A DNA stretch of 64,000 bases, from the NCBI GenBank assembly GCA_030531905.1, contig JAUNMG010000001.1:56569-120568 (forward strand), in the 5' to 3' direction. The notes under the pieces are model-generated. The model ran no database searches. It worked only from the letters and a program-made list of their open reading frames with translations, and had not been told where the DNA came from. This DNA comes from a bacterium (GTDB taxonomy: Bacteria; Bacillota_I; Bacilli_A; RF39; UBA660). A program made the translations under genes and the position numbers. This document shows, piece after piece, positions 14,002 to 49,725 of the stretch (the first letter of the stretch is position 1; every line of letters starts with the position of its first letter).

Positions 14002-14052
14002 AAGAAGTATAAATCTTTTTTTTTGGTTCAAACTTTAAATGAGGTGAAGAAA

Positions 14053-14691
14053 ATGAAAAAGAAATTGAGATTAAAATCTTATGTAATTCCATGTCTATAT
14101 GTTGTTTTATTTTCATCAATTATAGTTGGAGGAGCATTAATTACTAAGGAATTAAGTAAAAATAAGGATTATTCAACACCAGATTATACTTATGTATCCA
14201 ATACAATCTTAAGCGAAGATGTTCCAGTAATTAATGAAGTTACTAAAATGTTAAAACCATATACTAATGAAAATGTAAAGGTTGGAAAATCATATTACGA
14301 CTATAAAGCTGAAAGTAAGGCTCAAGAAGGTTCAATAACTTATTATGATGGTAGCTACATTCAAAATTCAGGTATTGATTACACACTAGATGAAACATTT
14401 GATGTAGTAGCAGTTTTAAGTGGAACAGTAGTAAGTGTAAAACAAGATGATATTTTAGGAAATGTTGTTGAAATAAAACATGATAATAACTATGTAACTA
14501 CTTATCAAAGTTTAAGTGAAGTATCAGTTAAAAAAGATGATATGGTAACACAAGGACAAATAATAGGAAAAAGTGGAACTAACAAATTAGACAAAGATAT
14601 GGGAAATCACTTACATTTTGAAGTTTATGTTAATGGACAAGTAGTAGATCCAAGTCTTTATGTAGATAAAGAAATCAAGAAAGAACAATAA
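14053..14691 (+). CDS. M23/LytM-family metallopeptidase, membrane-anchored (candidate SpoIIQ-like protein)
   Basis: N-terminal TM helix. LytM domain with intact HxxxD and HLHFE motifs. Located upstream of mreB/mbl, as spoIIQ-region genes are in Bacilli. RBS GAGGTG precedes the ATG at 14053. Confidence 0.6.
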   Translation: MKKKLRLKSYVIPCLYVVLFSSIIVGGALITKELSKNKDYSTPDYTYVSNTILSEDVPVINEVTKMLKPYTNENVKVGKSYYDYKAESKAQEGSITYYDGSYIQNSGIDYTLDETFDVVAVLSGTVVSVKQDDILGNVVEIKHDNNYVTTYQSLSEVSVKKDDMVTQGQIIGKSGTNKLDKDMGNHLHFEVYVNGQVVDPSLYVDKEIKKEQ

Positions 14692-21213: not shown

Positions 21214-23709
21214 ATGGTGAATATTTTAAGAAGAATGTTTGATCATGAATATAAAGAATTAAAAAGATTTACAAAGTTGGCTGATCAAGTAATGGAATTA
21301 GATGAAGAAATGTCTAATTTAACTGATACAGAATTACAAAATAAAACAAGTGAATTTAAAGAAAGATTAAAAGCTGGAGAAACTCTAGATGATATTTTAG
21401 TTGAAGCTTTTGCTGTTGCTAGAGAAGCAGCATACAGAGTTATTGGAGAAAAACATTTCTATGTTCAAATTCTAGGAGCTTTAGCTATTCATTATGGTAA
21501 TATAGCAGAAATGAAAACAGGTGAAGGAAAAACTTTGACATCAGTTCTTCCAGCATATTTAAATGCTTTAGAAGGAAAAGGCGTTCATATTATTACTGTT
21601 AATGAGTATCTAGCAGGACGTGATGCTGAATGGATGGGTGGAATCCACAGATTCTTAGGATTAACTGTTGGAGTTAATACTAGAGATTTATCACCTAAAG
21701 AAAAACAAGAAGCTTATAATTGTGATATTACATATTCAACAAATAATGAGATTGGATTTGATTATCTTCGTGATAATATGGTTGTTCGAAAAGAAGATAG
21801 AGTTCAAAGACCACTTAATTTTGCAATTATCGATGAAGTTGACTCAGTATTAATTGATGAGGCAAGAACTCCTCTTATTATTTCAGGTGGAGAAATGTCT
21901 AGTGCAAATCTTTATATTTCTGCAGATAAATTTGCTAAAAGCTTAAAAGCAGAAAAAGAATATATTTATGATGAAAAGACAAAGGCTGTTACATTAACAG
22001 ATGAAGGAACAGAAAAAGCTGAAAAAACATTTAAGATTTCTAATCTATATGAAGTAGAAAATGCTACTTTAGTTCACTATATAAATCAAGCATTACGTGC
22101 TAACTATGCTATGAAAAATGACGTTGATTATGTTGTACAAGATGGTGAAATAGTAATAGTTGATCAATTTACTGGACGTTTAATGAAAGGTAGAGCTTAT
22201 TCTGATGGCTTACATCAAGCAATTGAAGCAAAAGAGGGAGTTAATATTAATCAAGAAACAAAAACTTTAGCGACAATTACTTTCCAAAATTTATTCAGAA
22301 TGTATAAAAAACTATCAGGTATGACTGGTACTGCTAAAACAGAAGAAGAAGAATTTAGAAACATTTATAACATGTATGTTATTGAAATACCTACTAATAG
22401 GCCTGTAATAAGAGATGATGAACCAGATTTAGTTTATGCAACACGTGAAGCTAAATATAAAGCAATTATAGAATTTGTTAAGGAACGTTATGAAAAAGGT
22501 CAACCTGTTTTAATAGGTACTATTGCTATTGAAACAAGTGAATTAATTAGTAGTTTGTTAAAACAAGCTCATATTCCACATGAAGTATTAAATGCTAAGA
22601 ATCATGCACGCGAGGCTGAAATAATTTCTAAAATAGGTCAACATAAATCAGTAACAATCGCAACTAATATGGCAGGACGTGGAACTGATATCAAATTGTC
22701 AGAAGAAATTAAACAATTAGGTGGTTTATGTGTTGTTGGTACAGAACGTCATGAATCACGTCGTATTGATAATCAGTTAAGAGGACGTTCTGGTCGTCAA
22801 GGGGATCCAGGTTATACACAATTCTTTGTTTCAATGAAGGATGACTTAATGGTCAGATTTGGTTCAGATAGAATTGGTACTATGATGGAAAGTATGGGCT
22901 TAGGAGATCAAGCAATAAAGAGTAAAACATTTACTAAATCCATAACTACAGCTCAAAAAAGAGTAGAAGGAAATAACTTTGATATTCGTAAACAATTACT
23001 TCAATATGATGATGTAATGAATAATCAAAGAGAAATTATGTATGATAAAAGAAATGAAATACTTGATTCTGAATCTATTCATGAGACAGTTTTAACAACA
23101 TTTAGAAATCACATTTCAGATTTAGTAAAATCTCATATTGCACCAGAAGGTTATTTAACAGAACAAGACTTAGATGATATTGTTGACTTTAGTAATGAGA
23201 ATTTATTAAAGAAGGACATGAAAAAGTCTCAAATAATAAACATGGAAGTTGAAGATGTAATAGATAAGATATCAAAATTAGTAATCAAAGAATATGAAGA
23301 AAAATTAAAAGATATCCCAGCTGAAGTGACAGACGAATTTGAAAAAGCAATATCTTTACAAGTTATAGATCATTATTGGATGGAACATATTAATACAATG
23401 TCTCATTTAAGAGAAGGTATCTACTTAAGAGGATATGCTCAAGAAGATCCATTACGTGCTTATACCATGGAAGGATTTGATTTGTTTGATGACATGGTTC
23501 AAAAAATAGATAAAGATATATCAACTTTCTTATTACGTGCAGAAGTAAAACAAAATATAGAAAGAAAAGAAGTCTCAAAGAAAAAAATAACAAATGAGAG
23601 TGAATCTGAGGCTCCTAAGAAAAAGCCAAAAAGAGTAAGTAAAATTGGTAGAAATGATCCTTGCCCTTGCGGCAGTGGACGCAAGTATAAACAGTGCTGT
23701 GGTAAATAA
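21214..23709 (+). CDS. secA: preprotein translocase ATPase SecA
   Basis: 831 aa. DEAD-like motor motifs. C-terminal zinc finger CPCGSGRKYKQCCG. Confidence 0.95.
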   Translation: MVNILRRMFDHEYKELKRFTKLADQVMELDEEMSNLTDTELQNKTSEFKERLKAGETLDDILVEAFAVAREAAYRVIGEKHFYVQILGALAIHYGNIAEMKTGEGKTLTSVLPAYLNALEGKGVHIITVNEYLAGRDAEWMGGIHRFLGLTVGVNTRDLSPKEKQEAYNCDITYSTNNEIGFDYLRDNMVVRKEDRVQRPLNFAIIDEVDSVLIDEARTPLIISGGEMSSANLYISADKFAKSLKAEKEYIYDEKTKAVTLTDEGTEKAEKTFKISNLYEVENATLVHYINQALRANYAMKNDVDYVVQDGEIVIVDQFTGRLMKGRAYSDGLHQAIEAKEGVNINQETKTLATITFQNLFRMYKKLSGMTGTAKTEEEEFRNIYNMYVIEIPTNRPVIRDDEPDLVYATREAKYKAIIEFVKERYEKGQPVLIGTIAIETSELISSLLKQAHIPHEVLNAKNHAREAEIISKIGQHKSVTIATNMAGRGTDIKLSEEIKQLGGLCVVGTERHESRRIDNQLRGRSGRQGDPGYTQFFVSMKDDLMVRFGSDRIGTMMESMGLGDQAIKSKTFTKSITTAQKRVEGNNFDIRKQLLQYDDVMNNQREIMYDKRNEILDSESIHETVLTTFRNHISDLVKSHIAPEGYLTEQDLDDIVDFSNENLLKKDMKKSQIINMEVEDVIDKISKLVIKEYEEKLKDIPAEVTDEFEKAISLQVIDHYWMEHINTMSHLREGIYLRGYAQEDPLRAYTMEGFDLFDDMVQKIDKDISTFLLRAEVKQNIERKEVSKKKITNESESEAPKKKPKRVSKIGRNDPCPCGSGRKYKQCCGK

Positions 23710-23710
23710 G

Positions 23711-23755
23711 CTCGCAAACCCGCATGAAATAAGGGATTGCGAGTTTTTCTTTTTA
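23711..23755 (+). terminator. rho-independent terminator of secA
   Basis: CTCGCAA...TTGCGAG stem followed by a T-run. Confidence 0.7.
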
Positions 23756-23861
23756 TCAAAAATAGCCCAAAATAGGGGTTGAAGCCACTCTGGAGCCATT
23801 TTGATTTGGATATTGGGCTACATAAGTAAAAATTTATTATGGTTTCATGGTATAATTATGT

Positions 23862-24158
23862 ATGAAAGTTGGTGATATGATGAGCAAAATAGATTTAATT
23901 GAATTCACTGATGAAAAAGATAATTATGAATTAATGTATAAATGGTGTGGTCAAGAATTTATTTATGAGTGGTTTGAACAAAGAAAACTTTCCTATGAGG
24001 AGATAGAAAACAAATATAAGAATAAATTATTAGCAAATCAGCAACAGTTATTTTTTATAAATTATAATGATAATAAAATAGGATTTGTTCAAATATATAA
24101 ATATGATGATAAGAAAAGCAAAGCATTTATAAAATATGATAGTATATATCAATACTGA
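23862..24158 (+). pseudogene. truncated AAC(6')-Ie-like GNAT aminoglycoside acetyltransferase (N-terminal about 98 aa only)
   Basis: The translation LMYKWCGQEF...KIGFVQIYKY aligns with the N-terminal half of the AAC(6')-Ie family. The ORF stops mid-domain and downstream frames do not continue the fold. Confidence 0.5.
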
Positions 24159-24372
24159 CAGATACAAAAGATAACAATGTATGCTTTATAAAAACAAGTA
24201 ATGTTATTGTTACTGAATTAAAAAATATTACATGGGATTTAGCAAAATTAGAGGGTGAGAATAAATCGTTAAACGAATGGAAAGAAAGTCATATAAATTA
24301 TTTTAAAAAATTAGATTCTAATTTTAATGAAAACACAAGAGTTATATTTGAAGTATTTGAGGTGATTAAAAA

Positions 24373-24855
24373 ATGCAAATAATAGAATATCAAGATAAAT
24401 ATCTAGAAGATGTTAAAGAATTATTAGTTGAACTTGAGAAATATATTGTATCAATAGATAGAGATCATTTGGATCAAGTTCATCCTGAATATCGAGAAAA
24501 AATGGCAATTATAGATTTGGAAGAAGTTAATAAGAACAATGGTAAATGTTATTTAGCAGTAGAAAATAATAAGGCAATTGGTTTAATTATGGGTTGCATA
24601 TTTCCTTATGATGAATATGATTATCTGGATTATAAATGTCCTAAAAGGGGAGAAATTACAGAATTAATAGTTACAAATAAAATTAGAAGTAAAGGTATAG
24701 GACAACAACTAATAAATAAAATGGAAGAATATTTTAAATCCGTTGGATGTGAATATGTAATAGTTGATGTTTTTGCCTATAATGAAATAGGTAAGAGTTT
24801 TTATAATGAGAAAAACTATCATACAAGAATGGAAACGATGATAAAGAAAATATAG
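24373..24855 (+). CDS. GNAT-family N-acetyltransferase
   Basis: 160 aa with GNAT motif A (RSKGIGQQLI). Confidence 0.75.
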   Translation: MQIIEYQDKYLEDVKELLVELEKYIVSIDRDHLDQVHPEYREKMAIIDLEEVNKNNGKCYLAVENNKAIGLIMGCIFPYDEYDYLDYKCPKRGEITELIVTNKIRSKGIGQQLINKMEEYFKSVGCEYVIVDVFAYNEIGKSFYNEKNYHTRMETMIKKI

Positions 24856-24871
24856 ATTTTGGGTGGTATAA

Positions 24872-25087
24872 ATGATTTCAATAAAAGAGAATGTTAATAG
24901 TGTTGAAGAATTCAATTATTTATATGATGCTGTTGGATGGGGAAGCTATGACAAAAAAGTATCAGAAAAAGCAAAAGATGAATATAAGAAATATCAAGTA
25001 AAAACAATAAGTCCGGAGGAAAAAGAGTATTTAGAAACTTTAAAAGCAATAAGTAATAAAATTGATGATAAAGCAAAGAGTGAATAG
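24872..25087 (+). CDS. small ORF, possible GNAT N-terminal remnant
   Basis: 71 aa. The EFNYLYDAVGWG motif resembles the start of GNAT domains. It overlaps the integrase fragment ORF, so its status is uncertain. Confidence 0.25.
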   Translation: MISIKENVNSVEEFNYLYDAVGWGSYDKKVSEKAKDEYKKYQVKTISPEEKEYLETLKAISNKIDDKAKSE

Positions 25088-25148
25088 AGTGTATCATGTA
25101 GATATACTCTATTTTTATATGTATATCAAAGATAAGGAGAGTGATAAA

Positions 25149-25409
25149 ATGATTAGCATAAGAAAAAGAGGCAAAGTATATCAATATTGTTTTGAAGCAG
25201 GAAAGGTAAATGGAAAAAGAAAACAAATAACTAAATCAGGTTTTAAAACTAAAAATGAGGCATATATAGCAGGACAAAAAGCATATGAAGAATTTATAAA
25301 TGGAATAACTAATGTAGAGTGTAATATGCTATATGAAGATTATTTAGATTATTGGATTAAAGAATATTTTAAAAATATAAAAAAACAATATAGATCACAT
25401 CTATACTAA
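25149..25409 (+). pseudogene. tyrosine-recombinase (phage/ICE integrase) N-terminal arm-binding fragment
   Basis: MISIRKRGKVYQYCFEAGKVNGKRKQITKSGFKTKNEA matches the AP2-like integrase N-terminal domain. The ORF ends after about 87 aa, before any catalytic domain. Confidence 0.6.
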
Positions 25410-25571
25410 AGAAGAAATAGAAATAATCCTAAATAGATTTAAGAATAATAACCTTTTTTAGTATAAATATCTTATTATATATTAATTATACATTTAAAAA
25501 ATATTTTCATAAATTAACATAGAAGAATTGAAATATGAGAATTAATTCTAAAAATTAGAGGAGGATGTATA

Positions 25572-26714
25572 ATGAATAATTGTAATGATTGGGAACAAAT
25601 AAGAAAAAAACAAGAAGAATATAGAAAAAAATGTAAGTTTTATTATGTAAAAGGTCCAACGGGACCAAAAGGTGAAAAAGGAGATGTTGGTTCACAAGGA
25701 GAAAAGGGAGATAGAGGTATTCCTGGACCTGCAAGTATTGATGTCGGAATTACAGAAACTGTAGAATCTTCTGAAGATGCTAAAGTAGAAAATGTTGGAA
25801 CAAAAGAGGATGTTATTTTGAATTTCAAAATACCAAGGGGAGAACAAGGAATCGATGGTAAAATTGGTCCACAAGGTATTCCTGGTCCTAAAGGTGAAAA
25901 AGGTGATATTGGTCCACAAGGAATAAAAGGTGAAAAAGGAGATCAAGGACCATCAACTATTCAAATTGGAAATATTGAAACAATAGAATCTAATGAAGAA
26001 GCAGAAGTTATAAATGTTGGTACACCAGTAGATGTAGTTTTAGATTTTAAAATACCAAAAGGAGAAAAAGGCGACCAAGGAGATATTGGACCAAGGGGAT
26101 TACCAGGAGAAATAGGAAGGACAGAACACATTGCTATAGATGAAACTGAAACTTTAGAACCAGGGGAGCCTGCTCAAGTCATGGATACATTTGAAAATTG
26201 GGTACATCATTTAGCGTTTTTAATTCCAAAAGGAGAAAAAGGCGACGTTGGAGAAAGAGGACAACAAGGACCTGCAGGTCCTCCAGGAACAGAGTTTGTA
26301 TCTGCTTATGGGATTAGATATTCAATGGTTACTACACAACTAACATTATCGCAAGGGACTGATACAATAATACCACTACCTGAAAAAGGGACAGCTTTTC
26401 TTACAGATTATCCAGATGGTAATTCAATAAAAATAAAAGAAACTGGAACATACCTAGTATCATATTCATTATGTGGTGCAACAAATGAAGATTGTTCATT
26501 AACTATGTCTGTAAGAGCAAATGATATACTACAACCAGCTACGAATGCAACTAGTGAGTTTCAAGCACAAATAATTAACTGCATAAGTGGTTCAACTATT
26601 GTAGCTCTTAGTAAAGATGATCTTGTTACATTAAATGTAAAGGCATCTATGGCAGTTAGTCTAATATTTAATGGAAGTACTAATGCAGTTCTAAGCGTAA
26701 CTAAAATACATTAA
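25572..26714 (+). CDS. collagen-like triple-helix repeat protein with BclA-like C1q/TNF-type C-terminal domain
   Basis: Four G-x-y tracts (GPTGPKGEKGD...) interrupted by three repeats of a roughly 40-aa non-collagen module. The C-terminal ~150 aa has a BclA-CTD-like pattern (ETGTYLVSYSL). No signal peptide. Confidence 0.75.
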   Translation: MNNCNDWEQIRKKQEEYRKKCKFYYVKGPTGPKGEKGDVGSQGEKGDRGIPGPASIDVGITETVESSEDAKVENVGTKEDVILNFKIPRGEQGIDGKIGPQGIPGPKGEKGDIGPQGIKGEKGDQGPSTIQIGNIETIESNEEAEVINVGTPVDVVLDFKIPKGEKGDQGDIGPRGLPGEIGRTEHIAIDETETLEPGEPAQVMDTFENWVHHLAFLIPKGEKGDVGERGQQGPAGPPGTEFVSAYGIRYSMVTTQLTLSQGTDTIIPLPEKGTAFLTDYPDGNSIKIKETGTYLVSYSLCGATNEDCSLTMSVRANDILQPATNATSEFQAQIINCISGSTIVALSKDDLVTLNVKASMAVSLIFNGSTNAVLSVTKIH

Positions 26715-26803
26715 AGGAGTGGAAATCTCACTCTTTTTTTGTTATGAATTAATTATTTCAAAATTGATTGAAGCCATAAGATATAACAAAGGAAAGTGAT
26801 AAT

Positions 26804-28660
26804 ATGCAAATAATAAATGATAATACTATTGTAATAAATAATAGTGAGGAATTAAAACAAGTATTGAGCGAAGAAAATAATTATAGTTATATTTATTTAG
26901 GAAATGACATTACAATGACAAGTGGTTTTGTTATAAATAATAATAAAAGTAAAGTTATTGTTGATGGAACTTACAACAATACTAAGCATACTTATACAAA
27001 TAACTTGAGTTCAGAAGAAAATGTTATAAAGGTAAGTACAACTAATAAAAAAATTATATTAAAAAATATGAATATAATATCTTCACAGGGTTATGGAGTT
27101 ATTTATGTTCCTTCTCATCCAAATTATTCTAATGTAGTAGTAGAATATAATAATATAAATTTTAGTGGAATAGAACTATCATGTAATTATTATGGAACAA
27201 CTAAAATCGTTGATTCTCTTATAGAGGCAAAAGACACCAACAGTGTTTCTACTCAAAGGGTATGTGATTCCAATAGAATTATAATTGGAGGAAATACTAC
27301 AATTACAAGTAGTTCTACTAAAAATACAGTTTTCTTTTTTAATGATGTTATACCATCTTATATTAAAATAGTTCCTAATAGTAATGTAAATATTACAACA
27401 GATAAAGAACTTATGAATGGAACTAACAGACTAGATTTAATAGTAGGACATGGATCAGAATTTCTTTTAACGACAGGAAATGGTTTTGCAATAACAACAA
27501 CACATGGTGCTAGAAATGTTTTAATAGAAGAAATGGCTAAATTTACATTTATAGAAAAAAGTCACCAAAGAGTTCCTATGTGGAATGTATTTGGAGATTT
27601 TACGGTTAAAGAAGGAGCAAGTATATCAGTAATAAATACGTATATGAACACACCTTCTGATAATTATAATATTTATTTTAAGGGTACAAATCAAAAGTTT
27701 ATACTGGATAATCCAAAATATGTGAATATTTACACTAAAAATGCTAATGTAGTCTATACTAATAATCCAGTTGATTTTATATTTAATTTTAGTAGAATTA
27801 ATTTGTGGTTATATGCCCTTGATTATACTTCAGCTTGTAATATTGATGATACGCCAGCATTTTGTTGGTATAAAGAAGATACACCAGTTAAAATAACAGG
27901 TATCTTAAATAAAGATAGTACTACAGTTACATCACATAATTTTACAGATACTGAATTAGCTTCACTGCCTGATATAAATAATTTTACACTACAAAATATA
28001 AAAATATTAACTATTGGAATGCTTAAGATAAACGTTCATCCAATTATAGATTCTATAAATGCAATTTCAGGACATACTATACCTTACGCAAATGTCAAAA
28101 TAGAATACAATAATAAAAGTTTAACAGCAACAGCAGATGAAAATGGCCTTTTCGAAGTAAATATCGATTCTATTATTACAGATGATACAAGAATTAAAAT
28201 TATTTCTTGTTTAAACGGCTGCTTTAGTGAAAGAAAAGTAACTACTCCATTTATGGGAGAGTTAACTCTTTTAAAAGTAACAGAAAATATTCCGTTTAGT
28301 ATGATTCCATCTTCTACTAATCCAACTATTTTATCTAAAAAAAATGAAACAGTGGTAACTGTTGTTGATAGTAGAATAAATAGTACTAATTGGAGATTGT
28401 ATATAAATTTTATAAATCCAATGATAGAAGCAACTGGTAAAGTTTTAATAGATTCACTATTTTTTAAGAAATTTGATAATGAGAAAATTATTTTGAAGAC
28501 ACAAAAAAAGTTAATATATGAATCAAATGATAATGGTGGAAGTGTAAATATTAGTAATATTACATTTTCTACTGATAAAGGATTGTTTTTAAAACCTAGT
28601 AAGAATTTATTGGAAGATGAAGATTATTCCACATTAATAGTTTGGAGTATTGAGGCATAA
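26804..28660 (+). CDS. large right-handed beta-helix (pectate-lyase-fold-like) protein with C-terminal Ig-like domain; paralog of 41393..43267
   Basis: The N-terminus MQIINDNTIVINNSEELKQVL...GNDITMTSG is typical of parallel beta-helix proteins. An Ig-like block (ISGHTIPYANVKIEY...TADENGLFEV) lies near the C-terminus. About 45% identity to the minus-strand paralog. Confidence 0.55.
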   Translation: MQIINDNTIVINNSEELKQVLSEENNYSYIYLGNDITMTSGFVINNNKSKVIVDGTYNNTKHTYTNNLSSEENVIKVSTTNKKIILKNMNIISSQGYGVIYVPSHPNYSNVVVEYNNINFSGIELSCNYYGTTKIVDSLIEAKDTNSVSTQRVCDSNRIIIGGNTTITSSSTKNTVFFFNDVIPSYIKIVPNSNVNITTDKELMNGTNRLDLIVGHGSEFLLTTGNGFAITTTHGARNVLIEEMAKFTFIEKSHQRVPMWNVFGDFTVKEGASISVINTYMNTPSDNYNIYFKGTNQKFILDNPKYVNIYTKNANVVYTNNPVDFIFNFSRINLWLYALDYTSACNIDDTPAFCWYKEDTPVKITGILNKDSTTVTSHNFTDTELASLPDINNFTLQNIKILTIGMLKINVHPIIDSINAISGHTIPYANVKIEYNNKSLTATADENGLFEVNIDSIITDDTRIKIISCLNGCFSERKVTTPFMGELTLLKVTENIPFSMIPSSTNPTILSKKNETVVTVVDSRINSTNWRLYINFINPMIEATGKVLIDSLFFKKFDNEKIILKTQKKLIYESNDNGGSVNISNITFSTDKGLFLKPSKNLLEDEDYSTLIVWSIEA

Positions 28661-28714
28661 TGCCTTTACAAAAAAGAAATTTGATTCATACAATATATTG
28701 TAATGAGGTGAATT

Positions 28715-29065
28715 ATGACAAGTGATTATATTTATATTAAAATTTGTAGTAATGAAAACAGTAATTTAAGAGTAAAACTAAAAGATAAATGTAATAAGAG
28801 CGTTTTCGAAGGTATTACTGATAATTTTGGAAGAGTTAAGATACCAATATGTAATAATGAAGTATATAAATTAATTGTATATTCCAATTTATCAATTATG
28901 AAAATACCTTTAATTGCAAGAAAGAATAAGTTTTATTTTATAAACGTTGGAAATTATAAAAGAAAGGACCATCTTGTTACAGTTTTATTGACGGATAAAT
29001 ATTATCCAAATATAAAAATAGAAGGAGGAAAGATGATATTATGGCAAGACATACAATCCCAATAA
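28715..29065 (+). CDS. hypothetical protein
   Basis: 116-aa ORF downstream of the beta-helix gene. Overlaps the next ORF by 25 nt. Confidence 0.35.
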   Translation: MTSDYIYIKICSNENSNLRVKLKDKCNKSVFEGITDNFGRVKIPICNNEVYKLIVYSNLSIMKIPLIARKNKFYFINVGNYKRKDHLVTVLLTDKYYPNIKIEGGKMILWQDIQSQ

Positions 29066-29589
29066 CAAATGGTAAAGGAAGTATTGAACTTGTTACAGGT
29101 ACATACAACGCTCAAGCCGTAGCCGGTGGATATGATGCATCAACTCTTGATCCTAAAAGTGTTAATATTATTGATGGAACAACTACATATGCATTTACAA
29201 TAAGTGCAACAGGAACTTTAACACTTCATGTTACAGATACGGGAAATCCTGATACTGGAGTACAAATTATTGGTGCTAAGTTTATAAGAACAGATAGTAC
29301 AGGAACAATCGTTGGAAATGAAATAACAACAAATGATGATGGAAATGCTGTATTTAATAATGTCCCATTTGCAGAATCTGGAAGTACAGCAATATATTAT
29401 AAACAAATATCAAGTGATGGAGGTCATACGTTTGATGATACTGTTAAATCAATTGTTATGACTCAATCATCTGAAACAGTTCAAATAACAAATCCACCAG
29501 CACCAGTTAGAAACTTTACGTTAATGGATGCAAGTTTCCCTAATATACCTATTATAGATGGTCAAATAATACTTGAAGAAAATCAATAA
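29041..29589 (+). CDS. hypothetical Ig-like/CnaB-like fold surface protein
   Basis: 182 aa, Thr/Gly-rich beta-rich sequence (TTNDDGNAVFNNVPF...AIYY) reminiscent of prealbumin/CnaB-type domains. Confidence 0.4.
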   Translation: MARHTIPITNGKGSIELVTGTYNAQAVAGGYDASTLDPKSVNIIDGTTTYAFTISATGTLTLHVTDTGNPDTGVQIIGAKFIRTDSTGTIVGNEITTNDDGNAVFNNVPFAESGSTAIYYKQISSDGGHTFDDTVKSIVMTQSSETVQITNPPAPVRNFTLMDASFPNIPIIDGQIILEENQ

Positions 29590-29742
29590 AGAAGCAGATT
29601 AAAAAAACTGCTTCTTTTTATAATAATTATAAATAAAACTTGCTGAATAAAGTAAACGAATTATCTATTCTTTTATATATAGTTTGAATTATATTTATTG
29701 TATTCATTTAAGAATGATAACAATTACATAAGTAACATGATA

Positions 29743-30075
29743 TTACTTTTTTACCCTTTGAACTGGACTTTTTTTTGTTTTTTTATTAATATTAATTTTT
29801 GCTTGTTCGTAATATGAAGCAAAAGCTTTTGCTTGTTCAATTCTTTTTGTTTGTTTATTTCTTGAAATCATTATAGGATTATCGCTTTGTATCTGAATAA
29901 TTTCTTCAGTTATACACAATATTTTTTGTGATTGTTTTTTATTAGAAAACTTGTTAGTTGTATACTCAGGAGTATTAGTTAATATCATTGATACTAATTT
30001 TATTATAAGTTTTTTATCAAAGGTACATTCCATATTTTTTTTGCTATTGTTATATTCTGGTAATTCATGTGTCAT
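29743..30075 (-). CDS. hypothetical protein (basic C-terminus)
   Basis: 110-aa ORF with no recognised motifs. Confidence 0.35.
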   Translation of the reverse strand: MTHELPEYNNSKKNMECTFDKKLIIKLVSMILTNTPEYTTNKFSNKKQSQKILCITEEIIQIQSDNPIMISRNKQTKRIEQAKAFASYYEQAKININKKTKKSPVQRVKK

Positions 30076-30263
30076 AAAACCATTCCTTTCAAGTTTTAAA
30101 TTATAGCATACATTGAATATTATGTAAATTATTAAATTAATATTATTTGATAAGAATACTAATTTTTAGTCATCTTTTAAATAAAAAAACAAACCAAAAT
30201 GGTTCGAATGTTTTATTAATGATCTTCCAAAAATAACAATATTTATGCTGTTATTTTATATTT

Positions 30264-31010
30264 TTAATATCTAACAATGTCATTGCAAACAAATATTTTT
30301 TTAATAAGTTCTTTTACTGCAGTACCACAGTATGAACAACTTTTTTCACCTAAGCTAGTTATAGGACTTCCGCAATTTGGACAATGTAAACCAATAGCCT
30401 TAATATCTTTACTAAGCTTTTTCTCATCATAAATATAGATAAATTCAGTTCGTGCACGATCTTGTGTTTTGATACTTTTACCATTTCTTTCAAGAAAATA
30501 TTCATAACTAGAAGAAAAGTATATAGTCGCAACACCACCTTCTTTTTTGTATCTAGCTACAACAGTATTGTGAATTTTAAAATTTTTGAATCTAACTTCT
30601 TCATCTTTATCATCACTAATCATTTTATCTATAAAACTTTTTATTTTTCCACTAAACTTGCTAGAATCCTTTGTTTCAATTGCTTTATAACTATCAAGTA
30701 TTACTTTTTCAGCTTCTCTTTTCAATTCATTTATATTTATATCAATAAAATCTTTCTTTATTTGTTCTAAATAAATACTATCCATACTAGAAAGTGATTT
30801 AGGGACTTCTTGATCTTCAATTCTAGCTTCCTCAATTATATCTTTTAGACTCATTCCATTAAATCCATGTTTTCCAAGAACATTTTTAATTTTGAATTTA
30901 ATATATAAGTAACAAAATATTATAAATAAAATAAAGATTATTACTCCAATTAAAAAATACATAGTATCACCTTCTTTAATTTTATCATACAAAATTAAAA
31001 TTAATAACAT
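30264..31010 (-). CDS. membrane-anchored protein with C-terminal zinc-ribbon (CPNCG...CSYCG)
   Basis: N-terminal TM helix (YFLIGVIIFILFIIF), central coiled/Tim44-like region, C-terminal CxxC...CxxC. The likely start is the internal ATG around 30962. Confidence 0.5.
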   Translation of the reverse strand: MLLILILYDKIKEGDTMYFLIGVIIFILFIIFCYLYIKFKIKNVLGKHGFNGMSLKDIIEEARIEDQEVPKSLSSMDSIYLEQIKKDFIDININELKREAEKVILDSYKAIETKDSSKFSGKIKSFIDKMISDDKDEEVRFKNFKIHNTVVARYKKEGGVATIYFSSSYEYFLERNGKSIKTQDRARTEFIYIYDEKKLSKDIKAIGLHCPNCGSPITSLGEKSCSYCGTAVKELIKKIFVCNDIVRY

Positions 31011-31064
31011 AAACTAAAAATATTTTATCTTGATATGCTATAATATTAAAGAAATATAATAATT

Positions 31065-31706
31065 ATGGGTGATAATATTATGAAATTTAGCTCTCCAAAA
31101 GTAGAAAAATGCGTTCCTAAAGAAATTTTAGAAAGTTTTTCTACAAATGAATTTAATAATGGTATTTATGATAATAATATAAATAAGAATATTATAGTAG
31201 ATTCCACTACTTTTGATAGTTGTATATTTGAAAATATTGATTTTAGTAATATAAAACTAGAAAATGTAGATTTAATTGATGTTGTTTTTAGAAATTGTGA
31301 TTTATCAAACCAAAACTTTGATAAGCAATTTATAAGTAGAGTTACTTTTAATAATTGTAAACTACTAGGTACAAGTTTTATTGACAGTAGTCTAAATAAT
31401 ATTGAGTTTTGTGAGTGTAGTTGTAAATATATCAATTTGGCAGCTAGTAAAATAGAAAATTTAAAAATAATAGATTGTGATTTTAGTGAATCATCATTTT
31501 CAGAATCAAAATTAAAAAGCATAGATTTTGATAAAGTAAAATTTATGAATGCTGAATTTATAATGACAGATTTGAAAGGTATAGATTTTTCTAATTGTGA
31601 CATTAATGGAATTATGTTTGATTCTAAATCTTTAAATGGAATTATTATAAATACTTTTCAAGCGTCAAGTATTGTTGGAATGTTTGGAGTTAAAATTAAA
31701 AATTAA
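31065..31706 (+). CDS. pentapeptide-repeat protein (Qnr/MfpA-like size and architecture)
   Basis: About 213 aa, almost entirely A(D/N)LxX-type pentapeptide repeats (NIDFSNIKLENVDLIDVVFRNCDLSNQNF...). Size matches Qnr-family topoisomerase-protection proteins. Confidence 0.7.
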   Translation: MGDNIMKFSSPKVEKCVPKEILESFSTNEFNNGIYDNNINKNIIVDSTTFDSCIFENIDFSNIKLENVDLIDVVFRNCDLSNQNFDKQFISRVTFNNCKLLGTSFIDSSLNNIEFCECSCKYINLAASKIENLKIIDCDFSESSFSESKLKSIDFDKVKFMNAEFIMTDLKGIDFSNCDINGIMFDSKSLNGIIINTFQASSIVGMFGVKIKN

Positions 31707-31891
31707 AAAAGGTACCTAGATAGTTCTAAGTACCAATCTATATACAGGGGATCTTCACATAACTTCGTGAACCCTCCCCACTAATATAATATGTAAGAAA
31801 ATGCCAAATATACAAAAAAAGTAATTTATTTTATTTATTGATTAAGATATTTTAGGTATAATACTTATAATAATTAAAAGGACGGGATAAT

Positions 31892-32990
31892 ATGACAAAT
31901 GAGAAAATAGAAAAAATACTAACAAACAGTTTAAAAAAAGTAAATGATTTATGGAGGTCACTTTGACTGCTGTGAAAAAATAAAACAAATAAAACAATTA
32001 GAAGAAAAAACTATGGAAAATGGTTTTTGGAATAATAAAGATATATCTTCTGAAATAATAGATGAAATTAATAAATTAAAACAGATAGTAGAACCTCTAG
32101 AAGAATTAAAATCAAAAATAAACTCAAACTTAGAACTACTTGAGTTATTAGAAATAGAAGAAGACAATGAGGTTTTATCAGCAATCGAAAAAGAAATTCC
32201 TCTAATTGAAAAAAAAATATCAGAAGTTAGCTTAAATTTATTACTAAGTGGAAAGTATGATGGAGAAAATTGCATTTTAGAGATTCATCCAGGAGCAGGA
32301 GGAACAGAATCTTGTGATTGGGCAATGATGTTATATCGTATGTATAGAAGATATGCAGAAAGGAAAGACTATAAAGTAGAAGTTCTTGATTACCAAGATG
32401 GAGAAGAAGCAGGTATTAAAAGTGTTTCTATGTTAATAAAAGGAACAAACGTCTATGGATACTTGAAAAATGAAAAAGGTGTTCATCGTTTAGTTAGATT
32501 ATCACCATTTGATTCTAATAATAGAAGACATACATCTTTCGCTTCTGTCGAAGTAACACCAGATATAAAGAAAGATATCGATGTTACTATAGATGAAAAA
32601 GATTTAAAGATAGATGTTTATAGATCAACAGGAGCAGGAGGACAGGGAGTAAATACAACAGATTCAGCAGTAAGAATTACCCATCTTCCTTCCAAAATAG
32701 TAGTTACTTGTCAAAATGAAAGAAGTCAAATTCAAAATAAAGAGCATGCTCTACAAGTACTAAAAACGAAATTATTCTTATTAGAAGAAGAAAAACAACA
32801 ACAAGAGTTAGCTACAATTAAAGGAGGACAACAAAATATTGAATTTGGTTCTCAAATTAGAAGTTATGTTATGCATCCCTATTCAATGGTAAAAGATCAT
32901 AGAACTAATGTAGAAACAAGTAATGTTTCCAAGGTATTAGATGGAGATATTGATCTATTTATACAAAGTAATTTAGAAAGAGGTGTTTAA
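31892..32990 (+). CDS. prfB: peptide chain release factor 2, with programmed +1 ribosomal frameshift (join 31892..31963, 31965..32990)
   Basis: Short frame-0 ORF MTNEKIEKILTNSLKKVNDLWRSL ends at the in-frame UGA within CTT TGA C, preceded by an internal SD GGAGG. The +1 frame continues into an RF2 body with SPF and GGQ motifs. Confidence 0.9.
31953..31967 (+). promoter_or_regulatory. RF2 autoregulatory +1 frameshift site (internal Shine-Dalgarno GGAGG plus CUU UGA C)
   Basis: Seen directly. GGAGGT lies 3 nt upstream of CTT TGA C. Confidence 0.9.
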
Positions 32991-34852: not shown

Positions 34853-36508
34853 ATGGTAAGTAAAGAAGAACAAAATATTGGAGTTGAAAAAGAAATAGTT
34901 GAAATACCAACAGAGAATGGCAATGATAAAAAACAAGATAACCAAAAAAAGGGTAAGAGCAGCAAGAAAATGGCTATTATCTTATTAGCAGTTTTAATAT
35001 TTATTGTGATTGTAGCTTTCTTTGTGTATAGATACATTAAAGAAGATAACCAAAAAGAAGAAAAAAAGAAAAGTATAGTGAATACACAAAAAGAATATAA
35101 ATCTGAGTATAAGATGACAGGTAATGATATTCAAGATTTTGATTTATATTTTTTACAATTAGAATCAGCTAAGAAAAATGCTATATATAGTCCATTATCA
35201 ATTAAGTATGCACTTGCAATGTTGCAGGATGGAGCAGAAAATGATACAAAAGCTCAAATTAGTAATCTTATTGGTGATTATAAAACAAAAAAATATACAA
35301 ATAGTGCAAACATGTCATTAGCTAATGCTTTATTTGTAAAGGATACTATGAAAAAAGAAGTTAAAACAGATTATGCTCAAAAAATCAATAATAAATATGG
35401 AGCAGAAGTTGTATATGATGATTTTAAAGATGCTACTAATGTAAATAATTGGATAAGTAAAAACACATTGAATTTATTGAATAACGTTGTCGATGATTCA
35501 ACAGTTTCTAATTTAGATTTAATACTAGTTAATTCTTTGGCAATTGATATGGATTGGAATTACAAATTACAACACGAGGTTAGTGACAGTAAAGTTGCTC
35601 AAAGACTTTATACAGTTAGTTACATCCACGAAGATTATTCTGATTATGTTCCATCTATTGGTAATTCAAGTGAAACATTTAAATCAATTCTATTTAATGG
35701 AAAAAGTCAAGTAAAAGCTGCCCAAATAGGAGCTACTATTAATAATTATGATATTATAAAAGAATTGGGTGAAGATAATATCAGAAAATTTATCGAGGAA
35801 AAATATAGGGAGTATTTAAAAAATCCTGGATGTGGAGAAGAAACAACAGAAGAAGCTATAAAAAATTATGTTGATAATTATGTAAAAGATATTAATAAGA
35901 ATTATAAACAAGTAGATTATTCAACGGACTTTCAATTTTATACAGATAGTAATGTAAAGGTTTTTGCAAAAGATTTAAAAACATATGATAATACAACACT
36001 ACAATACGTAGGTATAATGCCAACAACTATGACATTAGATGAATATATAAAAAGCATAAATTCAAAAGATATAAGTAAACTAATAAGTAATTTGAAATCA
36101 CTTGAATTAAGTAGTTTTGAATATGGTAAAATTTATAGAATAACAGGATATATCCCTTTCTTTAAATACGATTATGAGTTACATTTAAAAGAGGATTTAA
36201 AGAAGTTAGGAATAACAGATGTATTTGATTCTAAAAAAGCTAATTTATCTAACATTTCAAGTAAAAATGAATATATAGAAAAGGCAATTCACAAAGCAAA
36301 TATTGATTTTTCAAATGAAGGAATCAAAGCAGCAGCCACTACCGTAATGGGTGGTATAGGGTCAACTTCATGTGGATTTGATTATAACTATAAGGTTCCT
36401 GTTGAGACAATAGATTTAACCTTTGATAAACCATTTATGTATATTATTCGTGATAAATCAACAGGTGAAGTTTGGTTTACTGGTAGTGTATATGAACCAC
36501 AAATCTAG
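34853..36508 (+). CDS. membrane-anchored serpin-family serine protease inhibitor
   Basis: Serpin N-terminal motif (IYSPLSIKYALAMLQDGAENDT). Hinge (NEGIKAAATTV) followed by a reactive-centre loop. C-terminal PFMYIIRD...VWFTGSVYEP. An extra N-terminal ~100 aa carries a TM helix (AIILLAVLIFIVIVAFFVY). 551 aa. Confidence 0.8.
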   Translation: MVSKEEQNIGVEKEIVEIPTENGNDKKQDNQKKGKSSKKMAIILLAVLIFIVIVAFFVYRYIKEDNQKEEKKKSIVNTQKEYKSEYKMTGNDIQDFDLYFLQLESAKKNAIYSPLSIKYALAMLQDGAENDTKAQISNLIGDYKTKKYTNSANMSLANALFVKDTMKKEVKTDYAQKINNKYGAEVVYDDFKDATNVNNWISKNTLNLLNNVVDDSTVSNLDLILVNSLAIDMDWNYKLQHEVSDSKVAQRLYTVSYIHEDYSDYVPSIGNSSETFKSILFNGKSQVKAAQIGATINNYDIIKELGEDNIRKFIEEKYREYLKNPGCGEETTEEAIKNYVDNYVKDINKNYKQVDYSTDFQFYTDSNVKVFAKDLKTYDNTTLQYVGIMPTTMTLDEYIKSINSKDISKLISNLKSLELSSFEYGKIYRITGYIPFFKYDYELHLKEDLKKLGITDVFDSKKANLSNISSKNEYIEKAIHKANIDFSNEGIKAAATTVMGGIGSTSCGFDYNYKVPVETIDLTFDKPFMYIIRDKSTGEVWFTGSVYEPQI

Positions 36509-40732: not shown

Positions 40733-40832
40733 TCTATTTAAAAAAGTTACCATTTATTAGAAATGATAACTTTTTTTCTTTCAAATTAATATTTGTATAT
40801 TAAACTCATAGAATTATTGTAGGGAGGTGACT

Positions 40833-41222
40833 ATGAACGAATTAAATAATATAGTAACAGCAGTTGGTAATTATAATAACATTCCAACAACTCTTACTTC
40901 AAATACTTCCGTAGTTAATATTATTGAAGGATTGAGCCTTCATAAGGAAGCAGATAAGACTAATTGGGGTGGTGGAAATTTAGAGTATACAATTACTATT
41001 GATAATCAAACAGATAAAATCTATGCAAAACCTATAGTTACTGATGTTATTGATACAACTTTAGTTGATTTTATCGATGGAAGTGTAGAAATAAATGGTG
41101 TTACTGCTACCCAAGATCAATATAATTATAATGAGGCAACACATACATTAACAGTTAACCTAGATGATGTAACACCCTCATCAAACTCTACTTTTACGTT
41201 TTCTGTTAAAAAGAAAGACTAA
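40833..41222 (+). CDS. DUF11-like conserved-repeat-domain small protein
   Basis: ADKTNWGGGNLEYTITIDNQTDKIYAKPIVTDVIDTTLVDFIDGSVEINGV fits the DUF11 pattern (KTAD..GD.ITYTI.V.N.G...A.NV.ITD.LP.GL.FV.GS). GGGAGG RBS. Convergent with the beta-helix gene. Confidence 0.55.
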   Translation: MNELNNIVTAVGNYNNIPTTLTSNTSVVNIIEGLSLHKEADKTNWGGGNLEYTITIDNQTDKIYAKPIVTDVIDTTLVDFIDGSVEINGVTATQDQYNYNEATHTLTVNLDDVTPSSNSTFTFSVKKKD

Positions 41223-41392
41223 TAATTATTTTATTTTACAAAGTCGCTCAGAATTAATTTGTGAAAGTGGAAAGACAATATATAGTAATTATGTCACAGT
41301 TATCGGACTTAAAGCTAGAGGCTTTTCTAACAATAATTGGTGTGGAACTCCACATTGGAGAATTTAAAAATCACAAAAAGAGTGATTTTTTT

Positions 41393-44880: not shown

Positions 44881-44984
44881 TTTAATAAAAAAATGATAAT
44901 AGTAAGAACAAGGTATTTTGGTGATTGCCTTGTTTTATTGCATATAAAATGATAAAATACAAATAATTAAAAGGGAGGTTTATT

Positions 44985-45302
44985 ATGTTTGAATTAGTAT
45001 CAAAATATACACCAAGTGGAGACCAACCAGAAGCTATTAAAGAATTAGTAGAAGGTCTTAATAATAAGAAGAAAGAACAAGTTTTGTTAGGCGCAACAGG
45101 AACAGGAAAAACTTTTACAATTGCTAATGTTATAAAAGAAACTAATAAACCTACATTAGTACTTGCTCATAATAAAACACTTGCAGGACAACTTTATTCA
45201 GAACTTAAAGAATTATTTCCAAATAATCATGTCTGTTTTTTCATTTCATATTATAGAAATACCTTAAAAAACTTTTATTCGAACGTTTTTAGGTTTATTT
45301 AA
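44985..45302 (+). pseudogene. uvrB 5' fragment (copy B), 105-codon ORF retaining Walker A
   Basis: Nucleotides about 45010..45258 are identical to uvrB 46836..47085. The sequence then diverges, with a stop after 15 more codons and a terminator hairpin plus T8. Confidence 0.8.
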
Positions 45303-49695: not shown

Positions 49696-49725
49696 ATAAG
49701 GCATAAACATCAAGGTGGTGGCAAC

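Follow-up and report, generated by a model that had tools for sequence, protein, structure and literature searches.

BclA proteins, as described from the Bacillus cereus group (BclA) and Clostridioides difficile (BclA1-3), lack a signal peptide and combine collagen-like G-X-Y repeats of variable length with a C-terminal BclA_C (C1q/TNF-like) head. Collagen-like proteins also form the tips or anchors of the endospore appendages F-ENA (F-Anchor, F-BclA) and L-ENA (L-BclA) (PMC12357932, PMC11362473), and known endospore appendage systems contain DUF11 domains as well (PMC12357932). WxL cell-surface proteins with a pectate-lyase-like adhesive domain, encoded in csc/WxL clusters in lactobacilli, enterococci and Listeria, line up a beta-solenoid, an Ig-like domain and a WxL domain. 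In phage tail fibre and tailspike modules, finally, a trimeric fibre that contains collagen and bears a head at its C-terminus is paired with a beta-helix protein, again without signal peptides. Here we describe a locus that shares traits with each of these systems. Its host, unlike those of the BclA systems, is an uncultured member of the order RF39 from the human gut, represented by a Bacillus-class MAG. We suggest, with a probability of roughly 0.45, that the locus encodes a fibre/adhesin module of the spore surface that the mother cell produces.

The window (the whole stretch of 64,000 nt that was analysed) carries at positions 25455-29620, on the forward strand, a self-contained operon of four genes, all of which had been placed correctly by the first-pass annotation. 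The products are a collagen-like fibre protein, an adhesin-like beta-helix protein and two small proteins, and sequence inspection revealed no signal peptide or other export signal in any of them. About 60 RF39 species genomes carry the cassette intact and syntenic, and purifying selection acts on genes 1-4 (dN/dS 0.11-0.52, mostly <0.4). On the left side, ~115 nt upstream of gene 1 (25455-25571) are kept in 33 distinct upstream sequences, whereas the flanks further out are unrelated. On the right side, the boundary is formed by a terminator hairpin (AGAAGCAG...CTGCTTCT) with a T-run at 29590-29620, the position and structure of which are kept among orthologues; the sequence beyond is unrelated. 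The 10-kb flanks of 64 loci held no recurring gene family besides the four, and no export component was encoded in the cassette or consistently adjoined it in these flanks. Because the flanks differ between genomes and divergence of the cassette is incongruent with that of secA (between loci L013 and L017, 65% for secA vs 90% for gene 2), we conclude that the operon moves between RF39 species by horizontal exchange.

Gene 1 (25572-26714, forward strand) encodes 380 aa with Pfam matches to Collagen (E = 5e-16) and BclA_C (E = 9e-9). The latter covers 112 of 128 profile positions and, at 35.7 bits, lies just below the 38-bit cut-off; PF18573 is precomputed on 120 of 120 homologues among the matches listed. 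The BclA-CTD-like end read from the sequence by the first-pass annotation, including the string ETGTYLVSYSL, was thereby corroborated, as was the missing signal peptide: the N-terminus (MNNCNDW...) is highly charged and has no hydrophobic stretch. Four short G-X-Y segments with three ~38-aa modules between them precede the head. The gene contains an internal duplication of a 222-nt unit (221-nt direct repeat, 25651-25871 and 25873-26093), the G-X-Y repeats vary among orthologues of 363-451 aa, and dN/dS is 0.12-0.23. Directly 3' of the gene, a terminator scan located a hairpin with a T-run (26713-26737, forward strand), which is a terminator or attenuator; its stem is preserved by differing sequences among orthologues. 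Gene 1 thus resembles BclA in its missing signal peptide, its length-variable repeats and its head. Unlike BclA, it has no exosporium leader peptide (no match to TIGR03720), its collagen is short and interrupted by globular modules as in phage fibre families, and three further structural proteins share its fixed operon, which lies on an island that is exchanged horizontally. Of the two earlier readings, the evidence favours the spore surface over the degraded prophage, but a B. cereus-type leader is not present.

Gene 2 (26804-28660, forward strand) encodes 618 aa, hardly the 'giant' protein it had been called. AlphaFold2 returned a confident model (pLDDT 93.3, pTM 0.91) in which residues ~1-345 are predicted to form a right-handed beta-solenoid of the pectate-lyase-like, adhesive type. 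An Ig-like domain follows (Big_6, E = 2.4e-4), in agreement with the first-pass annotation, which had missed a further C-terminal beta-sandwich. This C-terminal domain is a diverged WxL-like domain with NWRL as its first motif and the terminus ...LIVWSIEA. Foldseek matches include the SRRP binding region (5nxk/5ny0), and the top solved-structure match was that of L. reuteri (5ny0, TM 0.61 on target). Over its full length, gene 2 is homologous to signal-peptide-bearing proteins with Pfam Pectate_lyase_5, Big_6 and WxL, among them members that exceed the Pfam cut-offs of Pectate_lyase_5 and WxL, and its more remote homologues are WxL wall proteins that are secreted. By homology, it belongs to the pectate-lyase-like adhesin/WxL wall-protein family. 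In contrast to WxL proteins, gene 2 has neither signal peptide nor acidic linker, W-S-I is all that is left of its second WxL motif, and Pfam WxL stays below threshold. The signal peptide is consistently missing in the whole ~620-aa subfamily; in gene 2 the N-terminus is part of the folded solenoid in the model (pLDDT 96) and aligns past the signal peptide and acidic linker of the secreted relatives. Its dN/dS is 0.13-0.18.

This kinship could also mean that the cassette encodes a surface adhesin/fibre complex of vegetative cells, derived from Firmicutes WxL/csc-type cell-surface clusters, a reading that we consider unlikely. In that case the WxL-like domain would attach gene 2 to the thin RF39 wall, and export would be Sec-independent, e.g. 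by lysis of a subpopulation or by a holin-like or other non-classical pathway. The full-length homology to signal-peptide-bearing proteins and the gut adhesin as closest solved fold argue for such a complex; that the known gene 2 relatives are adhesins bound to the wall of vegetative cells counts against a spore location. However, signal peptides are consistently missing from all four proteins and from the whole subfamily, and no export component accompanies the cassette. The DUF916 and LPXTG partners of WxL clusters were likewise not found in the cassette or in the flanks of the 64 loci; the partners of gene 2 are instead a BclA-like fibre and two small proteins. BclA_C heads, moreover, are typical of spore or phage fibres and not of wall-anchored adhesins.

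Gene 3 (28715-29065, forward strand) encodes a cysteine-containing protein of 116 aa that matched no family and no PDB entry (dN/dS 0.18-0.52). Gene 4 (29041-29589, forward strand; 182 aa, dN/dS 0.11-0.29) overlaps it by 25 nt, and this overlap is conserved. Gene 4 orthologues gave sub-threshold matches to SpaA (26/27) and CarboxypepD_reg (15/27), a prealbumin-like (SpaA/CnaB-type) beta-sandwich signature. These matches weakly favour the earlier description of the protein as beta-rich and Ig-like, to which a single-sequence AlphaFold model (pLDDT 36) lends no support. Genes 3 and 4 have a 23-residue C-terminal motif in common, L[TM]Dxx[YF]PNIxIxGGxxIL (hhalign E = 1.5e-5). A small operon that joins a BclA_C collagen protein to small beta-sandwich subunits with terminal docking peptides is reminiscent of ENA. 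Unlike ENA, the cassette proteins gave no match to the appendage subunit families DUF4183 and DUF3992, the docking-like motif is C-terminal whereas the ENA hook is N-terminal, and the 618-aa beta-solenoid/WxL-like protein has no ENA counterpart. The missing appendage subunit families, like the missing exosporium leader, count against a spore-surface module.

Decayed mobile-element remnants lie to the left of the cassette (24872-25409, forward strand). They comprise a RhuM-type C-terminal fragment within 24872-25087 (PADLOC PDC-S05, 2e-7) and a tyrosine-integrase N-terminal fragment at 25149-25409 (Arm-DNA-bind_4, E = 2.8e-7), the latter, with its ATG at 25149, at the position reported before. 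Both remnants adjoin the cassette at four further loci, and RhuM or integrase fragments occur at two more. The integrase remnant is thus not incidental, as it recurs with RhuM in several species. The island context, which includes restriction-modification genes in addition to these remnants, would also fit mobile-element cargo of other function. More specifically, an integrative island might carry a fibre module (tail fibre, tailspike-like and accessory proteins) from a mobile element, either at the service of a phage, satellite or tailocin whose genes lie elsewhere or retained as lysogenic-conversion cargo. We regard this as decidedly improbable. Many PHROG tail-fibre families match gene 1 (best E = 1.6e-23), and the recurring remnants, the divergence incongruent with secA and the likewise missing signal peptides of phage structural proteins are consistent with such a module. 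Matches to annotated phage tail/fibre genes, however, are weak and confined to the collagen repeats (26-35%), those of gene 2 in the phage database are only four unannotated Listeria records (24%), and genes 2 and 4 have no relatives among 2.9 million IMG/VR contigs. The best viral structure matches reached TM <=0.3 vs 0.61 for the SRRP adhesin, and the likeness to tailspikes is one of generic beta-helix similarity. Phage structural, packaging and lysis genes were absent from the flanks of 64 loci, and Pfam-annotated cassette contexts held no tape measure, baseplate or capsid genes. By dN/dS, the cassette genes show no decay, unlike the fragmentary integrase that adjoins them, and cellular genomes keep these genes as a four-gene unit.

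Degraded prophage tail-fibre or tailspike genes had been offered as an alternative in the first-pass annotation, with adjacent phage structural genes at homologous loci as their expected mark. None was found at the 64 loci, and synteny across ~60 species, purifying selection on intact genes and the lack of IMG/VR relatives of genes 2 and 4 also speak against a prophage remnant.

Upstream of gene 1, AC (25490-25491) is followed after 16 nt by CATAAATTA (25508-25516), in agreement with the consensus for sigma-K, AC-N16/17-CATAnnnTA. The conserved upstream region further contains the palindrome AGAATTAATTCT within 25531-25556 and a Shine-Dalgarno sequence, GAGGAGG. Gene 2 is preceded at 29 nt by a CATAAGATA box (26775-26783, forward strand), then 7 nt and a Shine-Dalgarno sequence; the box reads CATAAATTA in most orthologues. 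Genes 2 and 3 are 54 nt apart, and in this gap a pattern scan found AC-N17-CATACAATA (28668-28695, forward strand), kept in ~40 of 48 distinct sequences. CATAnnnTA stands 28-29 nt ahead of gene 2, gene 3 and a gene 2 paralogue, and it precedes 4/5 related genes vs 4/59 other ORFs in the window; the full AC-N16/17-CATAnnnTA pattern is not enriched window-wide (7 observed vs ~10 in shuffles). The gene 3 box can alternatively be read as a sigma-A-type promoter, TTTACA-18-TACAAT (10/12 in a sigma-70-type scan), which is compatible with expression in vegetative cells. A check for sigma-K/sigma-E motifs, as proposed in the first-pass annotation, thus yielded conserved boxes before genes 1-3, that of gene 3 overlapping a sigma-A-type promoter. 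We take these AT-rich elements to be putative -10 boxes of the mother-cell sigma type, which cannot always be told from sigma-A hexamers.

To our knowledge, sporulation has never been observed in RF39, and the host, previously taken for a spore-former, is an RF39 MAG of uncertain sporulation ability. The window does contain the spoIIR gene noted before (9767-10288, forward strand; PF09551 E = 1e-37, TIGR02837 138.8 bits). It also encodes a SpoIIQ-like membrane-anchored M23 protein (14023-14691, forward strand) that matches NF053738 SpoIIQ over its full length (E = 2e-51, 174.7 bits against a 250-bit cut-off) and well above other M23 families. The whiA gene, cited alongside spoIIR, is not specific to sporulation. 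Probes for spoIID, spoIIID, spoIVA and spoVT gave no match in the window and flanks, a small sample of sequence. In another genome, a family member sits near YabG, SpoVG, YabP, YabQ and GerQ, and yet another is close to a SigE/SigK-like sigma factor. Sporulating species are predicted within RF39 (PMC10868615), and RF39 ASVs were, with Lachnospiraceae, Ruminococcaceae and Erysipelotrichaceae, among the few taxa successfully transplanted in a study whose title refers to transplanting spore-forming microbiota via eggshells (PMC7028958). In contrast, a machine-learning study gave RF39 MAGs a 0% sporulation probability (PMC12536801), and the unproven state of sporulation in RF39 favours a vegetative complex.

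The missing signal peptides, the BclA_C head, the promoter-like boxes and the SpoIIR and SpoIIQ-like genes point indirectly to a spore-surface module. As all four proteins lack export signals, sigma-E/sigma-K-type promoters would drive their synthesis in the mother cell during sporulation, and they would assemble in its cytoplasm into an exosporium-type nap or short appendage on the spore surface. The collagen segments and the BclA_C head might bring about trimerisation of the gene 1 product into a flexible fibre. Gene 2, a putative beta-solenoid adhesin with secreted WxL wall proteins as its ancestors, would supply the binding surface, and its WxL-like domain may have taken on the role of an anchor. 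Genes 3 and 4 may be small subunits that dock or polymerise via their shared C-terminal beta-hairpin motif and link fibre and adhesin to the outer spore layer.

A related second locus, a convergent gene pair, lies at 40827-43267. Its first gene (40827-41222, forward strand) encodes a DUF11/CLIPPER-type protein of 131 aa (TIGR01451, 25.7 bits), and DUF11 also occurs in clostridial F-Anchor-3, another likeness to ENA. The second (41393-43267, reverse strand) is the gene 2 paralogue, a signal-peptide-less protein of 624 aa with 48% identity to gene 2 and a sub-threshold WxL match (19.1 bits); CATAAATTA stands 28 nt before its start. The same pair occurs at one other locus.

The four open reading frames proposed by the first-pass annotation were borne out as forward-strand genes at 25572-26714, 26804-28660, 28715-29065 and 29041-29589 (genes 1 to 4), which together with an upstream region and a terminator (25455-29620) we refer to as the cassette. 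NCBI annotation of this MAG, whose G+C content in the window is ~26%, lists the four products as MDO5002692-MDO5002695 and describes all of them as hypothetical proteins. The cassette is contained in an 8.2-kb insert (23710-31943) between secA (21214-23709) and prfB (31944-32990), two genes that are neighbours in B. subtilis. Upstream of the cassette this island comprises two GNAT genes, one truncated (23862-24158) and one intact (24373-24855), and remnants of a RhuM gene (C-terminal part) and of an integrase gene; the cassette is followed by a 110-aa ORF and by genes for a zinc-ribbon membrane protein and a pentapeptide-repeat protein. Rfam had no match in 23700-32000, and no tRNA genes were found in the window.

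Gene 1 encodes a collagen-like protein of 380 aa. Pfam detected Collagen in four stretches (E 5.1e-16), arranged as four short G-X-Y segments with three modules of ~38 aa between them. At the DNA level the collagen region contains period-9 repeats, and a 222-nt unit is duplicated inside the gene. The C-terminal head had been described as BclA-CTD-like, and profile searches agreed: BclA_C (PF18573) matched residues 263-379 over profile positions 16-127 of 128 with an E value of 9e-9, at a score (35.7 bits) slightly under the curated cut-off of 38 bits, and precomputed PF18573 matches were present in all 120 of the 120 homologues listed, including one that is 99% identical. Gene 1 thus shares its G-X-Y repeats and a C-terminal C1q/TNF-like domain with BclA-type exosporium proteins but not their N-terminal leader of the TIGR03720 type. 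Its N-terminus reads MNNCNDWEQIRKKQEEYRKKCKFYYVK, and an NCBIfam scan with E values up to 0.1 returned collagen adhesin models only and no exosporium leader peptide. A PDB sequence search found collagen peptides only. In five related RF39 loci (L046, L047, L049, L054 and L059) genes 2-4 are kept at 59-78% identity while the upstream collagen gene is a very divergent substitute (27% identity) or was not detected, so that exchange of the fibre gene may not involve genes 2-4.

Gene 2 (618 aa) matched Pfam only through a weak Big_6 hit, but an exhaustive search yielded 414 family representatives. Of these, 150 were listed, and roughly half of the full-length proteins in that list are 600-650 aa long and begin at the same residue as gene 2. 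More distant relatives of 700-860 aa have an added signal peptide and acidic linker and end in ...W.L.DAP, and Pfam recognized Pectate_lyase_5, Big_6 and WxL domains in the signal-peptide-bearing proteins. No Sec signal peptide was found at the N-terminus of gene 2. The protein starts with MQIINDNTIVINNSEELK, residues that align to positions 40-230 of the signal-peptide-bearing relatives and that AlphaFold2 folds into a solenoid (pLDDT 96). The complete model, built from an alignment of 87 sequences (pLDDT 93.3, pTM 0.91), comprises a beta-solenoid, an Ig-like domain and a C-terminal beta-sandwich, in line with the beta-helix and Ig-like domain that had been proposed from the sequence. Its best solved-structure match in Foldseek was the binding region of the L. 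reuteri SRRP adhesin, a right-handed parallel beta-solenoid which the model resembles (5nxk_A, E 8e-4; TM 0.53-0.61 on target for 5nxk/5ny0, with 0.61 for 5ny0).

The pectate-lyase-like adhesive domain PF20585 had no match in gene 2 itself and was matched by the family members P0316, P0346, P0268, P0309 and P0437. Similarly, WxL (PF13731) had no Pfam match in gene 2, and a paralogue in the window reached 19.1 bits with this model (cut-off 25). Residues 6-616 of gene 2 align with P0268 (E 9e-64), whose C-terminus passes the WxL model at 30.7 bits. The C-terminal region of gene 2 carries the motifs NWRL and VWSI, the second WxL motif having degenerated to W-S-I. Because of the full-length homology within the family, the Pfam domains of the signal-peptide-bearing relatives and the SRRP-like model, we assign gene 2 as a predicted signal-peptide-less member of the pectate-lyase-like adhesin/WxL wall-protein family. 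Proteins of csc/WxL clusters differ in possessing an N-terminal Sec signal peptide, and these clusters include DUF916 and LPXTG partner genes. Neither partner was found when the flanking ORFs of 64 loci were clustered, where only the four cassette gene families recur, or in Pfam-annotated contexts. In ten related loci (L007, L009, L013, L016, L019, L021, L025, L030, L032 and L035) ATT stands in place of the ATG that opens gene 2 in the window (26804), with unchanged Shine-Dalgarno spacing. Such an arrangement suggests that translation begins at a non-canonical codon, and this may limit the amount of gene 2 protein.

The paralogue of gene 2 lies at a second locus (40827-43267). It is encoded on the reverse strand (41393-43267), is 624 aa long, lacks a signal peptide and is 48% identical to gene 2. 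Convergent with it is a forward-strand gene (40827-41222) for a DUF11/CLIPPER-type protein of 131 aa (TIGR01451, 25.7 bits), and the same gene pair is present in the related locus L065.

In Pfam, gene 3 (116 aa) had no match and SpaA matched gene 4 (182 aa) weakly. Sub-threshold SpaA matches were obtained for 26 of 27 gene 4 orthologues and CarboxypepD_reg matches for 15 of 27; the profiles indicate that gene 4 is a putative prealbumin-like beta-sandwich. Both small proteins share a C-terminal 23-residue motif, L[TM]Dxx[YF]PNIxIxGGxxIL (hhalign E 1.5e-5), which in our own reading looks like the first hairpin of a prealbumin-like domain. PDB profile searches with genes 3 and 4 returned nothing significant. 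The two genes overlap by 25 nt, and this overlap is conserved. A fusion of genes 3 and 4 by programmed frameshifting was set aside because the overlap contains a conserved ATG and N-terminus that belong to gene 4.

Relatives of gene 2 were found in 63 distinct loci, corresponding to about 60 species when one genome is taken per GTDB species. Their hosts are labelled uncultured Bacilli/Tenericutes, Clostridium sp. CAG:433, CAG:417 and CAG:302, and Acholeplasma sp. CAG:878. Four-gene synteny is retained in nearly all loci and the flanks vary, the conserved block extending from ~115 nt before gene 1 to a terminator hairpin directly 3' of gene 4. The cassette ORFs are intact in about 60 species, and dN/dS against 13 orthologues ranged from 0.11 to 0.52, mostly below 0.4. 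In at least ten other loci the cassette adjoins secA and/or prfB. Between some species pairs the cassette is less diverged than secA of the same genomes: in the L004 pair secA showed a dN of 0.23 and a dS of 0.95, compared with 0.06-0.12 and 0.35-0.57 for the cassette. L013 and L017 share 65% identity in secA, 90% in gene 2 and 93% in gene 4, and L017 and L036 share 78% in secA and 76% in gene 4. Since the pairwise identities of cassette and secA are incongruent, the comparison points to probable horizontal exchange of the cassette among RF39 species. Vertical inheritance as a secA-prfB core locus was rejected as the whole story for the same incongruence. In several species an integrase N-terminal remnant and a RhuM remnant are again found on the left side of the cassette, always truncated or frameshifted, and restriction-modification genes occur in some contexts. 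We found no convincing direct or inverted repeats bracketing the cassette, and PADLOC defence-system models matched none of its proteins.

The genes had alternatively been regarded as degraded prophage tail-fibre or tailspike genes. Such remnants are marked by adjacent structural genes, viral relatives and decay, and the cassette displayed none of the three. Phage structural genes were absent from the clustered flanks of the 64 loci and from the Pfam-annotated contexts, and IMG/VR contained no relatives of gene 2 or gene 4. Signs of decay were likewise not found in the cassette genes, given their dN/dS values and intact ORFs; truncation and frameshifting were confined to the neighbouring integrase. 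The stalk of gene 1 is matched by many PHROG tail-fibre families, and INPHARED matches to annotated tail or fibre genes were collagen matches at 26-35% identity. Gene 2 matched only four unannotated 'Listeria phage' records there (24%), and viral structures resembled its model generically, with TM scores of 0.3 or less. The prophage-remnant reading was therefore not upheld. A fibre module of a mobile element would still suit structural or adhesive-looking proteins that lack an export signal, as these also fit a phage-type particle, but with the phage tests having come out against a prophage remnant we consider such a module quite unlikely.

A search for sporulation promoters had been proposed, and conserved sites of the sigma-E/sigma-K type were found before genes 1 and 3. 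The sigma-K consensus of B. subtilis is AC-N16/17-CATAnnnTA, and its CATAnnnTA box is common to sigma-E and sigma-K sites, which it does not distinguish. AC-N16-CATAAATTA is located at 25490-25516 in the conserved region before gene 1, and AC-N17-CATACAATA at 28668-28695 in the 54-nt gap before gene 3, where most orthologues read CATAAAATA; both match the consensus. The gene 3 site can also be read as a sigma-A-type TTTACA-18-TACAAT. Gene 2 and the paralogue have the -10 box only, which in the paralogue is CATAAATTA, 28 nt before the start. Gene 2, gene 3 and the paralogue have a common layout in which CATAnnnTA, beginning 28-29 nt before the start, is followed by 7 nt, a Shine-Dalgarno sequence, ~4 nt and the start codon. 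A CATAnnnTA box within 120 nt upstream was present in 4/5 of the related genes versus 4/59 of the other ORFs in the window. Because the complete sigma-K pattern shows no enrichment across the window (7 found vs about 10 in shuffles), the promoter argument rests on conservation and gene-relative position and not on frequency. Gene 1 is followed by a hairpin that the orthologues preserve with differing sequences, which suggests that read-through is attenuated.

RF39, a lineage widespread in the gut, has a reduced genome and, to our knowledge, no cultured representative. The GTDB families CAG-433 and CAG-302 belong to this order (PMC8035907, PMC7676259). Published views on RF39 sporulation differ: the order has been predicted to contain sporulating species (PMC10868615), one classifier assigned RF39 MAGs zero sporulation probability (PMC12536801), and RF39 ASVs were among the few taxa, with Lachnospiraceae, Ruminococcaceae and Erysipelotrichaceae, that were transplanted successfully in a study whose title refers to the transplant of spore-forming microbiota via eggshells (PMC7028958). 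The window contains spoIIR (9767-10288, forward strand; PF09551, 1e-37) and, at 14023-14691 on the same strand, a gene for a SpoIIQ-like membrane-anchored M23 protein whose best match, NF053738, is full-length (E 2e-51) at 174.7 bits against a cut-off of 250. The presence of both genes suggests that the engulfment-stage machinery of sporulation is at least partly retained in this RF39 genome. Probes for SpoIIID, SpoVT, SpoIVA and SpoIID found nothing in the window or the loci, which says little because only ~20 kb per genome was sampled. The sole find of the sporulation probes was a SigE/K-like sigma factor of 232 aa in the related MAG locus L064 (8512-9210), 0.8 kb from a gene 2-family paralogue. 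Its best matches, SigK (167 bits) and SigE (165 bits), are both under the cut-offs, and it aligns from position 31 of the SigK model and may lack an N-terminal pro-sequence.

Four proteins of structural or adhesive appearance that all lack an export signal, a fixed operon with a BclA_C fibre, and purifying selection in cellular genomes leave two main options, a spore-surface structure assembled by the mother cell or a phage-type particle. We favour the former, and put the probability that the cassette is a spore-surface module at roughly 45%, because of the promoter boxes, the presence of SpoIIR and a SpoIIQ-like gene, and the occurrence of gene 2 family members in the neighbourhood of sporulation genes. 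The wall-protein kinship and missing signal peptide of gene 2 might also be reconciled with a surface complex of vegetative cells exported by a non-classical route, which we hold to be unlikely; the rest of the probability is assigned to no reading. Known endospore appendages are similarly built from BclA-like proteins, DUF11 domains and small beta-sandwich subunits with docking peptides at a terminus (PMC12357932), but the cassette lacks the defining ENA subunit families. S-, L- and F-ENA have a DUF3992 or DUF4183 major subunit, and Pfam detected neither domain in the cassette proteins, nor in orthologues of genes 3 and 4 (27 of each).

On the spore-surface reading, a more specific and quite unlikely proposal is that the cassette is a horizontally transferable spore-decorating kit and represents a spore-surface fibre of a new class. 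Gene 2, derived from a wall-binding adhesin of the WxL type, would have been converted to cytoplasmic, mother-cell assembly and joined with a BclA-like collagen fibre and two small subunits, which would polymerise or dock by donating their C-terminal beta-hairpin, and RF39 species would exchange the whole cassette by way of a decaying integrative island. If true, the kit would tune spore adhesion and transmission of uncultured, host-dependent gut bacteria. Should the broader spore reading hold, the cassette would be a case of a wall adhesin taking on a new role at the spore surface, and of a mobile island carrying spore-surface genes. As it is conserved above secA in some pairs and carries sporulation-type boxes, the cassette offers concrete, testable markers for a possible RF39 spore surface, and it defines a pectate-lyase-like/WxL adhesin subfamily with a lost export signal. 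The components are of known kinds. In the literature searched we know of no description of this gene combination, of the WxL-type subfamily lacking an export signal, of the C-terminal motif shared by the two small proteins or of such a unit moving horizontally within an uncultured order.

Several further features of the window were observed. AC-N17-CATAAACTA, a full match to the sigma-K pattern, lies at 30989-31016, 57 nt before the gene of the pentapeptide-repeat protein (31065-31706), a little downstream of the cassette; in the related locus L056, too, a homologue of this gene follows the cassette. At 49666-50846, adjacent ORFs of 195 and 193 aa resemble, judged by sequence reading, a split TnpB/IS605-family gene, and a homologue of the first is found inside the cassette region of locus L024, where it separates the collagen gene from gene 2. 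Two copies of the uvrB 5' end are present (44982-45253 and 46808-47079; 272 nt, 99% identity); they flank an inserted membrane-protein gene (45442-46605) and leave an ORF for a 105-aa UvrB N-terminal fragment at 44985-45302. Serpins are uncommon in bacteria; a 551-aa protein encoded at 34853-36508 contains a serpin domain (PF00079, E 9e-48) and, by eye, a hydrophobic stretch near its N-terminus.
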